50,962 nt of DNA from Bdellovibrionota bacterium (GTDB lineage: Bacteria; Bdellovibrionota_C; UBA2361; OMII01), in contig JBIKWQ010000014.1 of assembly GCA_044356215.1 (NCBI GenBank), positions 1 to 50,962 of the forward strand, read 5' to 3'. Positions 8,369-50,962 of the stretch are shown one piece after another (position 1 is the first letter of the stretch; each line of letters starts with the position of its first letter). A program made the translations under genes and the position numbers. Below the pieces are notes generated by a model that made no database searches, had not been told where the DNA came from, and saw only the letters and a list, made by a program, of their open reading frames with translations.

Positions 8369-8556
8369 AGGGAAGCGAGGCAAAACCTACCCGTAGCGAG
8401 AAAGTGGAGGTTGAGTTGATATTCGATTTTCGAGATGGGGAAAAACCGCAAGTGTATCCACTGTGATACATTGAGGATTTTTCCCCATCTCGAAAACTCG
8501 AAGAGCGGCTCAAGATCCGCTTTCGCAGTAGGGAGGGGTTTTGACTCGCTTCCCTA
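8369..8556 (+). mobile_element. Palindromic MITE-like element family A, copy 1
   Basis: Terminal inverted repeats AGGGAAGCGAGGCAAAACC / GGTTTTGACTCGCTTCCCT; internal 19-bp stem; homologous to 11856-12112 (inverted) and 50843-50962. Confidence 0.9.
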
Positions 8557-8745: not shown

Positions 8746-9501
8746 TTAAGACTCCAACTCCGCGTACAAAGGCGCATGATCAGAAAGCTTACCCCAGGGC
8801 TCCCCTACCAGCGCCCGGCCGCCCACCATCGACAATCCACGAGCGTAGACGCGGTCTAATTTAAAGAGTGGATACACAGTCGGAAAGGTGGCTTGATAGG
8901 CACCGTGAAGATTCTGAAAGACCTCTTTGATTCCTAGCTCGCGCACTAGAACACCCGATGCTCGCTGCTGCCAATCGTTAAAGTCACCGGCCAAGATAAG
9001 AGGCTCCCCCTCGGGAACGCTATCTAAAACTCTCTTACATATCTTTCTTAGCTGCTCATCACGGCATTTTCTAAATAAACTTAGGTGAGCGCAGACGCAG
9101 TGAATGGTCGACTCCACTCCCGGAATCTCAATCTCTGCATGAAGTAACGCCCGACACTCCAGCGGGTTCGTTGAGATATCTATGTTCTCATAGCGTTTAA
9201 TCGGGAACCTACTTAAGATCGCGTTACCCTGATGACCATGTTCAAAAACAGAGGTTTTTCCGTAAGCCACATGCGGCCAAACACTACTGGCGATGTAATG
9301 GCTCTGCGGAAGATCTGGCCACAGCTCGACGTTCTTGGCATGCTTATCATGCTGCCCGATTACCTCCTGTAAAAAAACTATATCAGGAGCGACTGACGCG
9401 ATCGCTCCTCTTATATCAGGAAGGGTAAAGGTGCGGTTGCCGAAACCAAACCCCTTGTGAATATTGTATGACAGTACCTTAATTCGATTCTTCTCTGTCA
9501 T
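8746..9501 (-). CDS. Endonuclease/exonuclease/phosphatase family protein (YbhP-like)
   Basis: SYNIHKG, LQEV, GNAILSRFP, AGDFNDW, LDR and SDH motifs; follows clsB as in ybhO-ybhP. Confidence 0.9.
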   Translation of the reverse strand: MTEKNRIKVLSYNIHKGFGFGNRTFTLPDIRGAIASVAPDIVFLQEVIGQHDKHAKNVELWPDLPQSHYIASSVWPHVAYGKTSVFEHGHQGNAILSRFPIKRYENIDISTNPLECRALLHAEIEIPGVESTIHCVCAHLSLFRKCRDEQLRKICKRVLDSVPEGEPLILAGDFNDWQQRASGVLVRELGIKEVFQNLHGAYQATFPTVYPLFKLDRVYARGLSMVGGRALVGEPWGKLSDHAPLYAELES

Positions 9502-9520
9502 GAATCGTTCACTACTTCTG

Positions 9521-10720
9521 CTACAACACTCTACGCATCATTAAGAGCCCCTTACCCAAGGCTCTCTCGATCCACGGACGGTCTCGCCAGTTTCCAAGTG
9601 TAACCTCTTTGCTAGCTGCACAGTCGATCTCCAATTGAGCCGCCAAAGATCTCACAGCTTCTGCATCACCAAGAACGATATCAGCTTCAAGATCATGAAA
9701 CAGACTCCGGTGGTTTAGATTACTCGAGCCAACGATCCCCCAATCATCAATCACCATCGTCTTGGCATGCATCATTCTCCTATTATACTCGAAAATTCGC
9801 GCTCCCGCCTTTAATAATCCGACATGGAAAGCTGAAGTAACCCAAGGCATGAAAAAAACATCAGATTGCGCGGGCACAACGATACGAACATCGACACCGG
9901 ACTCTGCCGCCACCCCAAGGGCCTTAACCAGATCGGAATCCGGGACAAAATACGCGTTCTCAATCCAGATCCTTTGACGAGCGCCTAGGATCTTAACCAA
10001 TAGGTCTAGATAATTATCTCTCCGTTGAGAGCGCCTAATATTTAACCGCACCAGCACGCCTGATGAGATCGCCTGCCTGACCTTTCTTGCCAATCTTCTC
10101 CGACCAAGTCGCCTCTGCCAGAGCTCATTAAAACTATCGGCAAGAACCGAGACCTCACCCCCACTCACCATGGCGCCCGCATCGCGCCAAGCTAGCGCTC
10201 CTACAAACTCAGCGCAGTGATACTCGATAATATTAAGACTACCAACAAATGCCTTAAAGGAATCGACTATACACACCTTGCGGTGGTTTCGGCTGTTGAT
10301 TCTCGTGAAGACTTTGGAGAGTGAGCGCCCCTTGGGCAGAATCTTCTTTCCTCGAAACCACCGCTCCCATGGAAGCTCATGAAATATCCTAAGTAGGATC
10401 CCCGAACTGTGACATCTTCGTCTAAGATAAGGCAGCCATGTGCTAGAGCCGATCCCGTCAACGATTATCCGAACATCGACTCCCCTTTTAGCCGCATGGC
10501 CGAGCTCCGTTAAAATTCGCTCGCCTAACCGGTCGTTAGAGAAGATATAGCTCTCGATATGGATAGATCTCCGTGCGCTTTGGAATTCAGCGATCATCGC
10601 ACGGAAGAAGTCGTCGCCTTCGAAGAACAGCTGCAGGTTGCTCCAGGAGGAGGAGGTTGGAGTGGAAAGAGGAGTATCGGATCTGACACCCTCAATATCG
10701 TTAGTTGTACTTGAAGACAC
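9521..10720 (-). CDS. clsB: Cardiolipin synthase ClsB-type (phospholipase D family)
   Basis: Two HxK motifs (RNHRKVCIVD, MHAKTMVIDD), ESYIF, AYFVP. Confidence 0.85.
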   Translation of the reverse strand: MSSSTTNDIEGVRSDTPLSTPTSSSWSNLQLFFEGDDFFRAMIAEFQSARRSIHIESYIFSNDRLGERILTELGHAAKRGVDVRIIVDGIGSSTWLPYLRRRCHSSGILLRIFHELPWERWFRGKKILPKGRSLSKVFTRINSRNHRKVCIVDSFKAFVGSLNIIEYHCAEFVGALAWRDAGAMVSGGEVSVLADSFNELWQRRLGRRRLARKVRQAISSGVLVRLNIRRSQRRDNYLDLLVKILGARQRIWIENAYFVPDSDLVKALGVAAESGVDVRIVVPAQSDVFFMPWVTSAFHVGLLKAGARIFEYNRRMMHAKTMVIDDWGIVGSSNLNHRSLFHDLEADIVLGDAEAVRSLAAQLEIDCAASKEVTLGNWRDRPWIERALGKGLLMMRRVL

Positions 10721-10947
10721 CTGCGTACCTTAAGTGGGACGTTGACTAAGTAGTATACATCATAAGTCGTTAGTCGATCGTGAAAACCCTGCTCAAAAAG
10801 ATAGGGTCCGGACATTTCCTCCCCCCTGTCCCACTTAAATACACCTGACCTATTCCGCTCCAGCCCTAACTAACTGAATACACGTGAATTTATCGACTCA
10901 CGTCTTTTCCGCCCAAAAATACCTCGTAATTACAACCCATTACCCCT

Positions 10948-10963
10948 TGGCAAACCCCTTGCA
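10948..10963 (+). promoter_or_regulatory. Sigma54 (-24/-12) promoter
   Basis: TGGCAAACCCCTTGCA: GG(10949-50)-N10-GC(10961-62), matching TGGCAC-N5-TTGCA at all but one position. Confidence 0.75.
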
Positions 10964-10973
10964 ATAGCCAGGG

Positions 10974-11326
10974 TATGAAGTCGAAATACGAAACTCAAAA
11001 TACTCTGATCTTTAATGCCGGACGACCTTTGAGGTTCGTATTCAGCGTCTGCTTACGTAATAAGGTAGCCCAGTTGCCGAAAAGCGGAAGCACTTTGGCC
11101 GAAACGGGAGATTACTCTTTAGATCTGGTGATAAAAAACATCAGTCAGATAGAATCCCGCCAAGGTGGCGCGAACATTAACCAAAGGAATGCTACACAGT
11201 ACGAAGAACTCGTAATAACACTAAGTGAGAGTTGCGAGGGACGCGAACTAAAATAGCAAACCGAACTTAACTCTCCCCAAGGCATAAGCCGTGGGAGATG
11301 TAAGGTAAAGAAAGGGAGAAGGCGAA
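10974..11326 (+). ncRNA. Candidate structured RNA or long 5' leader
   Basis: Several stems: 10985-10999/11028-11042 (14 of 15 pairs), 11091-11099/11159-11167 with nested helices, CTCGTAA/TTGCGAG, TCTCCC/GGGAGA. Lies downstream of the sigma54 promoter. Confidence 0.5.
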
Positions 11327-11668
11327 ATGGAATCGAATATCATTGAACGCTTGTTCGCATCGTTTACTGAACTTGAGGGAGCGATCACCAAGGCTCGTGA
11401 GACGTTTAAATCGCGACCGACGATACCGGACTCAGTAATTAGACGCCTTGAATCCTACGACACGATTCTGGCCAAGCAGCGCTCATTAGCTGTATCTCTA
11501 TGCGAGGCTATCTCGCGTAAGAACTGGGATGAGGTCAACCGTAACGTTGGCTTAATCAACGGACTCTCTGTCATGATTCGCGATGACGCTAAGGCGATCC
11601 TAGCCGCGGTAGCGGTGAAGGACGAGGTTGAGCAGGTTGAGTTAGATGAGACTGAGAACTTCTGCTAG
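11327..11668 (+). CDS. Small helical hypothetical protein
   Basis: Purine-rich RBS (GGGAGAAGG), amphipathic helices, acidic tail, its own terminator. Confidence 0.85.
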   Translation: MESNIIERLFASFTELEGAITKARETFKSRPTIPDSVIRRLESYDTILAKQRSLAVSLCEAISRKNWDEVNRNVGLINGLSVMIRDDAKAILAAVAVKDEVEQVELDETENFC

Positions 11669-11714
11669 AAACTAAATCAAAATCTCGCCTACGCCATAGG
11701 CGCCGTTTCAAGAC

Positions 11715-11742
11715 AAACCCCGCTTCGGCGGGGTTTCTGTTT
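11715..11742 (+). terminator. Rho-independent terminator
   Basis: AAACCCCGC-TTCG-GCGGGGTTT followed by CTGTTT. Confidence 0.85.
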
Positions 11743-11855
11743 CCCGTAACTAATCACCGGATTTTTTGGGTCGTTCCAGTCATTATATCGCCAAATATGT
11801 TGTCCTCGTGCATCATGTTTTCCTTGATACCCGAGCGCTTCTTTAATATTCTCTT

Positions 11856-12112
11856 TAAGGAAGGCCGGCAAAACCCCTCCCTACTGCGAAAGCGGATCTT
11901 GAGCTGCTCTTCGAGTTTTCGAGATGGGAAAAAATCCTCAATGTATCACAGTGGATACATCTCCGGCCTTCGCTAAAGCTACGGCCGGCGAGGTTTTGTC
12001 GGACCAGACGTAGCCTTGGCGAAGGCTGGTGCGGTTTTTTCCCATCTCGAAAATCGAATATCAACTCAACCTCCACTTTCTCGCTACGGGTAGGTTTTGC
12101 CAGCCTTCCTTA
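11856..12112 (-). mobile_element. MITE-like family A, copy 2 (inverted), TA-flanked, carrying a 68-nt nested hairpin
   Basis: TIR TAAGGAAGGCCGGCAAAACC / GGTTTTGCCAGCCTTCCTTA; body is the reverse complement of 8369-8556 plus an insert at 11963-12030. Confidence 0.9.
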
Positions 12113-50817: not shown

Positions 50818-50962
50818 TAGGGAAGCGAGGCCTTTGCTTCCCTAGGGAAGCGAGGCAAAACCTACCCGTAGCGAGAAAGTGGAGATTGAGTTGATATTTG
50901 ATTTTCGTGATGAGAAAAAACCGCAGATGTATCCTCTGAGATACATTGAGGATTTTTTCTCG
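50818..50962 (+). mobile_element. MITE-like family A: collapsed TIR-only copy (50818-50844) plus copy 3 (from 50843, cut off by the window)
   Basis: TAGGGAAGCGAGGCCTTTGCTTCCCTA, then TAGGGAAGCGAGGCAAAACCTACCCGTAGCGAG..., homologous to 8369 onward. Confidence 0.9.

Follow-up and report, generated by a model that had tools for sequence, protein, structure and literature searches.

Positions 10827-11745 on the forward strand of contig JBIKWQ010000014.1 (assembly GCA_044356215.1, Bdellovibrionota bacterium) hold a self-contained transcription unit, in which a conserved small protein of 113 amino acids, predicted to be a cytoplasmic three-helix protein, is preceded by a sigma54-type promoter and a long 5′ leader. 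The stretch of DNA that was analyzed, referred to here as the window, is 50,962 nucleotides (nt) in length and corresponds to positions 1 to 50,962 of the contig. An earlier reading, made from the letters of the window and hereafter called the sequence-only reading, had proposed that the unit is a novel cis-regulatory leader or a small RNA/protein unit. The analysis, which covered 90 non-redundant loci (34 from the genus, 41 at the order level, and 15 paralog loci), establishes that the sigma54-driven structured leader is real and matches no known RNA family; the conserved core of this leader is most likely a second promoter, internal to the unit, and not a riboswitch. The unit comprises the following features:

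10827-10843, unstranded: activator dyad TGT-N11-ACA upstream of the promoter, its centre at about -139 relative to the predicted +1
10846-10862, unstranded: second, degenerate dyad TGA-N11-CCA, a full TGT-N11-ACA in some relatives in the alignment
10867-10879, unstranded: TAAC-N4-TGAAT block of conserved alignment columns
10948-10963, forward strand: sigma54 -24/-12 promoter TGGCAAACCCCTTGCA, with GG-N10-GC spacing and a predicted +1 at about 10973-10975
10974-11326, forward strand: 5′ leader of the sigma54 transcript, about 353 nt
10975-11256, forward strand: open reading frame (ORF) of 93 amino acids with its ATG at the predicted +1, not a conserved protein gene
10985-11042, forward strand: first leader hairpin (10985-10999 with 11028-11042), 14 of 15 positions paired, one mismatch
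11105-11159, forward strand: upstream leader domain, CGGGA/UCCCG and CUAU/AUAG-type pairs enclosing a CUGGUG/CAUCAG hairpin (11125-11144)
11188-11259, forward strand: compound hairpin P1-P4 (z -3.74, 0 of 200 shuffles; minimum free energy (MFE) frequency 0.50)
11190-11194 with 11254-11258, forward strand: P1, GCNAC with a distal GUNGC
11190-11219, forward strand: conserved core, bipartite TGYNACA-N17-NATAAC, with a putative -35 (T)GCTACA at 11190-11196 and a putative -10 AATAAC at 11214-11219
11198-11203 with 11244-11249, forward strand: P2, variable
11209-11216 with 11231-11238, forward strand: P3, YCGYAA with UURCGR
11219-11221 with 11225-11227, forward strand: P4, a small hairpin after UAAC
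11271-11300, forward strand: hairpin CUCUCCC/GGGAGAU, preceding the ribosome-binding site and particular to this sequence
11313-11322, forward strand: Shine-Dalgarno region AGGGAGAAGG, GGGAGA/GGAGA conserved before the AUG, mostly unpaired in predicted folds
11327-11668, forward strand: gene of the conserved 113-amino-acid, predicted three-helix protein
11718-11742, forward strand: intrinsic terminator CCCCGC-UUCG-GCGGGG plus T run; RNA contigs end at 11745 and 11766

The near-consensus -24/-12 promoter, with a start near 10974, was already recognized in the sequence-only reading, and it proves to be a constant feature of the genus. A strict TGGCN-N6-TTGC pattern is found within 600 nt upstream of the gene in all 34 genus loci, in 34 of the 41 order-level loci, and in 2 of the 15 paralog loci, compared with 0-2 matches per group in the reverse-strand and downstream controls. 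Measured from this promoter, the leader has a median length of 335.5 nt in the genus (range 237-381) and of 198 nt in the order (range 58-512). Further upstream, the TGT-N11-ACA dyad lies 102-133 nt before the TGG in 28 of 33 genus loci, with 26 of these 28 falling at 114-133 nt, and the TAAC-N4-TGAAT block bears a likeness to an IHF site on the opposite strand. The genome carries one gene with a Sigma54_DBD, rpoN, and six matches to Sigma54_activat (E ≤ 1e-48), marking genes for bacterial enhancer-binding proteins, all of which lie on other contigs.

Apart from the copy here, the genome holds the tandem dyad arrangement only once more, inside a gene on contig C13; that second copy is not accompanied by a sigma54 promoter and was taken as chance. 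A 454-amino-acid response regulator beside the gene in some relatives was considered as a neighboring activator and rejected, being a REC-LpxC fusion rather than a sigma54 activator; it is situated just downstream of the small gene at L059:4122-5486 and L063:3417-4781, and on the minus strand in L052 and L055. Elsewhere in the genome, sigma54-type promoters at C9:33382, C42:25704 (minus strand), and C55:36268 (minus strand) precede N-termini that by eye resemble those of proteins of the hook, flagellin, and hook-cap kinds; flagellar genes are thus probably under sigma54 control in this organism.

The unit is represented in environmental RNA. In each of twelve river metatranscriptome runs, of only 230-350 million letters, 70-76% of the words sampled from 10900-11760 are present. 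In four runs, RNA contigs begin at 10988/10989, which is 14-15 nt past the predicted +1 (the exact 5′ end is not resolvable from contigs), and cross the leader and the ORF at a word depth of 11-14 to end at 11646, 11745, 11766, or 11811. In these four runs there is no RNA cover over the 388 nt upstream (10600-10987), nor is there a loose end at the contig start. The RNA contigs therefore fit with one transcript running from the sigma54 start to the terminator, and a start close to the AUG at 11327, which the sequence-only reading had named as the observation that would speak against a leader, is not what they display.

As a whole, the leader (10974-11330) folds better than its dinucleotide shuffles, only 1 of 100 of which is as good (z -2.90), and most of it varies in sequence and length among loci. 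An Rfam 15 scan of the whole window returned no family at gathering score, and a permissive scan of 10700-12100 gave only sub-threshold rows at chance level, in keeping with the earlier failure to match the RNA to RNase P, tmRNA, 6S, or a known riboswitch. The leader is not a riboswitch of a known class. With respect to an expression platform, no terminator was found between the core and the ORF, and the Shine-Dalgarno region is paired at anywhere from 2 to 11 of 13 positions in the predicted folds, with no common pattern that would amount to sequestration.

The individual stems that had been picked out by eye differ in how well they are kept. The first, 10985-10999/11028-11042, does pair as listed above; it appears in the centroid fold of the whole leader, not in the MFE fold, and is retained in the nearest relatives only, where the changes are wobble-compatible. 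The CGGGA/TCCCG, ATCTG/CAGAT, and CTCGTAA/TTGCGAG stems are likewise present, and are kept or covary in relatives. In contrast, the stem 11091-11099/11159-11167 exists here but is not kept in the nearest relatives, where changes fall on the 5′ strand but not on the 3′ strand, and the TCTCCC/GGGAGA stem (11271-11300), though present, is not kept in sequence, as the aligned relatives have different hairpins in its place. For the upstream leader domain (11105-11159), RNAalifold returned 11 pairs, five of them with compensatory changes, at a weak energy of -1.86, and its CUGG hairpin covaries in other groups; this domain has weaker support than P1-P4.

The ATG of the 93-amino-acid ORF coincides with the predicted +1, and in the five nearest relatives the frame is uninterrupted over 84-93 codons. 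These two observations could suggest that the ORF is translated from a leaderless message and that the apparent leader is in fact a first cistron, a reading that we consider very improbable. The last third of the ORF lies in two different frames among these five relatives, and its variable columns are spread evenly over codon positions 1, 2, and 3 (30/26/31), as opposed to 18/9/87 for the 113-amino-acid gene in the same five genomes. Furthermore, there is no such ORF in genus member L049, only unrelated short ORFs were found in four other genus members inspected, and neither Pfam nor NCBIfam holds a family match. The ORF thus lacks a coding signature and is not a conserved translated gene, an outcome on which the sequence-only reading had made its own proposal depend. 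The persistence of an open frame over 93 codons in these five relatives, with about 40% of the columns variable and codon periodicity absent, may be due to chance or may be a side effect of constraint on the RNA.

The best-conserved part of the leader is a block at 11188-11219, consisting of AATGC[ATG]ACA, a variable run of fixed length, and (Y)CGYAATAAC, which aligns without gaps in 20 of 20 loci. The resulting bipartite motif is present in 33 of the 34 genus leaders and in 14 of the 41 order-level leaders, and its spacer measures exactly 17 nt in 33 of 33 genus matches and in 11 of the 14 order matches, the other three having 16 nt. In the sister families, 34-43 nt separate the end of the -10 block from the AUG in 11 of the 14 order loci.

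The same arrangement recurs elsewhere in the genome. The pattern TG[CT]NAC-N17..19-[AC]ATAAC matches 26 sites, compared with 7 for the reversed pattern; 19 of the 26 are outside long ORFs, where a fraction of 0.19 would be expected (binomial p 4e-9), and at 13 an ORF starts within 300 nt downstream. When the spacer was scanned from 12 to 22 nt, a sharp peak emerged at 17 nt, with 19 sites (16 intergenic), every other spacing yielding between 0 and 7. Across 41 genomes, TGTCACA-N16..18-CATAAC has 37 matches as against 2 in controls. Because the motif, its exact 17-nt spacing, and its intergenic placement are shared with sites that precede other genes, and because the sister families hold the core at promoter distance from the start codon, the core is read as an inner promoter, from which a second start is predicted at about 11225-11228. 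A sigma70 region-2 profile matches twelve stretches of the genome, 10 of them above the cut-off, and there are thus several candidate sigma factors.

Examples of the TGTCACA-N17-CATAAC class are found at C2:1723-1752, C6:1472-1501, C8:27651-27680, C16:27337-27366, and C120:14285-14314. Sites of this class precede mostly lineage-specific genes, often with products that look secreted or lipoprotein-like, and in five relatives a paralog of the small protein has one such site at a distance of about 220 nt, but the site points away from it. A reading of the core as a mini-ORF (ATG, eight codons, TAA) was rejected, since L006 has AAG in place of the ATG, the spacing in L024 is 1 nt shorter, and L026 carries an earlier in-frame stop.

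In the genus, the conserved core doubles as the 5′ arm of the compound hairpin P1-P4, which measures 63-87 nt there and is common to the single-sequence folds. In an alignment of 27 rows, 80.7% of the cells are paired, compared to 22-40% when the partners are slid, and 12 of the 21 pairs display compensatory change, with a covariation score of 0.303 as against at most 0.067 for slid partners. For example, one P1 pair occurs as AU 14 times, UA 9 times, and UG twice, and one P3 pair as CG 9 times, UA 6 times, and UG twice; about 35 G-U cells fit the forward strand only. The leader thus does contain a conserved, covarying structure, as the sequence-only reading anticipated, albeit within the genus only. 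Seven sequences gave a covariance model (R1) that proved too narrow. A second model (R2), built from 12 true hits, recovers 24 genus elements, all at the expected place, along with three opposite-strand echoes; in the genome of the window it has one match only, at 11188-11259 (E 2.3e-9). When 25 elements were aligned with plain MAFFT, RNAalifold returned no pairs, since their 3′ halves had not been aligned correctly.

These observations raise the question as to whether the core and hairpin are purely an RNA element, that is, a protein-binding or small-ligand site within a single sigma54 transcript, whose likeness to other genomic sites does not reflect promoter function. Covariation supports the structure, 15 of 21 hairpin elements reach z ≤ -2, and the long transcript exists; moreover, the highly conserved unpaired AAU before P1 and UAAC between P3 and P4, set beside variable stems, are typical of RNAs that bind ligands or proteins, and such an RNA would be new, given that it has no Rfam match. 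Yet the same blocks, with the exact 17-nt spacing and without a pairing partner, stand at 16 other intergenic places, and they are enriched in relatives as noted above. In addition, the other families keep the sequence of the motif and its distance from the AUG, but not the fold, and neither a consistent expression platform nor a regularly paired Shine-Dalgarno region accompanies the hairpin. A purely RNA-level role is therefore regarded as rather unlikely.

Since most of the leader is not conserved and its best-conserved block resembles a promoter, a tandem-promoter mRNA is preferred over a riboswitch or a small RNA. The chances of this preferred reading, in which a long, sigma54-made transcript folds over an inner promoter and its leader acts in cis, are put at slightly better than even. 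The distal, enhancer-dependent sigma54 promoter drives a transcript, with a start predicted at about 10974, that runs through the folded leader of about 350 nt and the ORF and ends at the intrinsic terminator. According to the preferred reading, the inner block at 11190-11219 would serve as a second promoter for a sigma factor of the sigma70 family, and two mRNA isoforms would be expected: the long one, and a short one that starts at about 11226 and has a leader of about 100 nt. The short isoform would begin within the very region that the long isoform pairs with the promoter-bearing 5′ arm of P1-P4. As the 3′ arm of the hairpin would then be the start of the short mRNA, the isoforms should fold differently, and the long leader would act in cis. 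The sigma54-made mRNA would consequently receive a 5′ fold unlike that of the short mRNA, and the two would probably differ in stability or in translation rate.

Several points weigh against this tandem-promoter reading. On the side of the promoter, the inner -10, NATAAC, does not have the final T of the housekeeping -10, the version found in the window (GCTACA/AATAAC) is weaker than the core of the class (TGTCACA/CATAAC), and the bipartite motif occurs in only 14 of the 41 order-level leaders. The inner promoter is itself a putative one. The RNA contigs come with one depth figure each, such that a second 5′ end is not visible from them, and carry no strand information. On the side of the hairpin, model R2 misses 10 of the 34 genus loci and all 56 loci outside the genus, and the other families place the same motif in different local folds. 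The hairpin alignment was fitted by a covariance model, and so leans towards structure, and the 3′ ends of the folded pieces were picked by complementarity to GCNAC, which flatters the z-scores; an alignment-free test of cognate versus non-cognate pairing gave a p of only about 0.016. Finally, the predicted folds do not consistently mask the ribosome-binding site, so that any effect on translation can only be inferred.

The recovery of the leader from river RNA also bears on a different proposal, namely that the RNA is an abundant, sigma54-made, trans-acting or dual-function molecule, possibly processed from the mRNA, that additionally encodes the small protein. Such abundance could be read into the presence of most of the sampled words in a dozen small runs and into the lack of RNA cover over neighboring DNA in four of them, but the runs were found using this very stretch, and their depth therefore cannot rank the unit against other genes. 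In each of the four runs a single contig spans the leader and the ORF, with no separate small RNA seen, although contigs cannot exclude one; no terminator separates leader from ORF, and most of the leader is not conserved.

A further point in favor of a trans-acting role is the content of GGA-in-loop hairpins, which in the sister-family leaders number 31 against 9.1 expected, together with the presence of csrA in the genome. The genus leaders have 20 against 14.6 expected, and the clade of the window displays no excess: its own leader contains one such site (0.34 expected) and the other nine leaders of the clade (L002-L008, L046, L049) contain none. Taken together, a dual-function RNA appears improbable, and a stand-alone small RNA is probably not what the leader represents. 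What survives of the original proposal of a novel cis-regulatory leader or small RNA/protein unit is thus the sigma54 transcript, the structured leader of about 350 nt, the orphan protein, and the lack of a known RNA family, but not the conservation of most of those 350 nt beyond close relatives, nor a separate small RNA.

In the order-level leaders L029, L085, L092, L025, and L082, two covarying hairpins bear A-N-GGA-W loops, GCACGGAUNGC near the 5′ end and GACANGGAUUGUC further on; these look like binding sites of the CsrA/Rsm type. No Hfq gene was found in this 96% complete genome, and a reading of AAUAAC as an Hfq ARN site was rejected on that account.

The 113-amino-acid protein, noted earlier as a helical ORF, is real and predicted to be all-helical. 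All 41 genomes of the order that were searched contain it, and in a large protein collection 196 of 205 candidates were found at E ≤ 0.001, nearly all of the named ones being annotated as hypothetical. An alignment of 21 members reveals an invariant LINGLS..IRDDA..IL and an invariant C-terminal cysteine, and AlphaFold predicts a three-helix bundle with a predicted local distance difference test (pLDDT) score of 82.8. No named family was found for it, the best E values being 0.02 in Pfam, 0.066 in NCBIfam, 0.028 in PADLOC, and 0.063 in PHROGs. Similarly, a profile search of the PDB yielded no solved relative (best 0.16), Foldseek hits in the PDB were limited to generic helical bundles (best E 0.68), the ESM Atlas returned only unnamed clusters, and a search for longer, fused forms found none.

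The UUCG-capped terminator is likewise where it had been placed. A hairpin of -9 kcal/mol or better, followed by a T run and lying no more than 130 nt from the stop codon, is found in 26 of the 34 genus loci, and in the genus the gene is monocistronic. Outside the genus, a GspK-like gene (Pfam T2SSK) follows the small gene on the same strand in 30 of the 32 loci that have at least 500 nt of downstream DNA, and in 29 of those 30 it lies within 600 nt. The two form a gene pair, sometimes overlapping, in L076, L079, L095, L101, and about 26 more loci, without other type II secretion system genes adjoining. In the genus of the window this pair is split, and the GspK-like gene of the window's genome is unlinked, at C12:14668-15762. 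A complex prediction for the small protein and this GspK-like protein scored 0.02, which is evidence neither for nor against binding.

These elements could be combined into a bolder proposal, a promoter-inside-hairpin device in which the inner promoter and the 5′ arm of the hairpin are specified by one and the same DNA. The sigma54-made mRNA would fold over the start of the short mRNA and so differ from it in stability, translation, or factor binding, which would amount to a leader switch that depends on promoter choice; under its control would be a small protein, itself new, acting together with a GspK-like pseudopilin. The hairpin would then be a new RNA motif, and the TGTCACA-N17-CATAAC class a new promoter type of an uncultured Bdellovibrionota order. 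In this full form we regard the proposal as speculative and rather unlikely.

Upstream of the unit, at 8746-10720 on the minus strand, lies a divergent pair of genes, one PLD-like (of the cardiolipin-synthase type) and one of the endonuclease/exonuclease/phosphatase family. This pair is syntenic with the unit in 10 of the 10 genus loci whose flanks were inspected, and the start of the PLD-like gene is about 100 nt from the enhancer dyads. Downstream, a repeat of about 236 nt occupies 11850-12090, with further copies in the window at 8390-8556 (inverted) and 50865-50959, and many near-identical copies in the genome: 272 BLAST segments in total, with full copies at 96-98% identity on C44, C9, C13, C25, C79, and C62. 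The repeat resembles small non-autonomous mobile elements or repetitive extragenic palindromes (REP-like), and river RNA contigs with many differences cover it.

A full-text literature search found nothing on this unit or this lineage. For this uncultured freshwater order of the Bdellovibrionota, the analysis provides a dedicated sigma54 enhancer-promoter and a candidate lineage-wide promoter class with sharp 17-nt spacing, together with a new covarying RNA hairpin outside Rfam and a small protein that is strongly conserved and has genetic ties to a GspK-like pseudopilin gene. Since the unit is expressed in rivers, its regulation is open to study in the raw reads of existing metatranscriptomes. 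The case also illustrates how a promoter may masquerade as a conserved RNA motif within a long leader.

Known systems resemble parts of this unit. In CsrA-controlled leaders, such as those of glgC and hag/flaA, hairpins present GGA in their loops. The sister-family leaders of the same gene likewise have at least two GGA-in-loop hairpins with covarying stems, and csrA is found in the genome of the window. The leader in the window has one such hairpin, rather than two or more with one at the Shine-Dalgarno sequence, and is not classed as a CsrA-bound leader. Among the sigma54-dependent regulatory RNAs are Pxr of Myxococcus, Qrr of Vibrio, GlmY/Z, and CrcZ, which share with the present unit a structured RNA made from a sigma54 promoter with enhancer sites. 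However, those RNAs are stand-alone molecules with their own terminators, while here the structured part runs into an mRNA and has no Rfam match.

The enteric glnA gene is preceded by tandem promoters, one of the sigma70 type and one dependent on sigma54 (glnAp1/glnAp2). In both cases, a sigma54 promoter with activator dyads and a promoter of another class, putative in the unit described here, would act on one gene to yield mRNAs with different leaders. Unlike in the enteric case, it is the sigma54 promoter that is distal here, and the inferred inner promoter would be embedded in the 5′ arm of a hairpin that is conserved in the long RNA.

Lastly, the attack-phase promoters of Bdellovibrio bacteriovorus that depend on FliA (sigma28) have the consensus TTAAG-N16-CCGATA (PMC3627812). 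The -35 half of the present candidate class, TGTCACA/TGCNACA, is unlike either TTAAG or TAAA, and the class therefore does not fall among sigma28 promoters. The -10 half, (C)CATAAC, is by contrast close to CCGATA(A), and both are bipartite classes, the present one putative, that run through a lineage of the Bdellovibrionota and stand before many lineage-specific genes.

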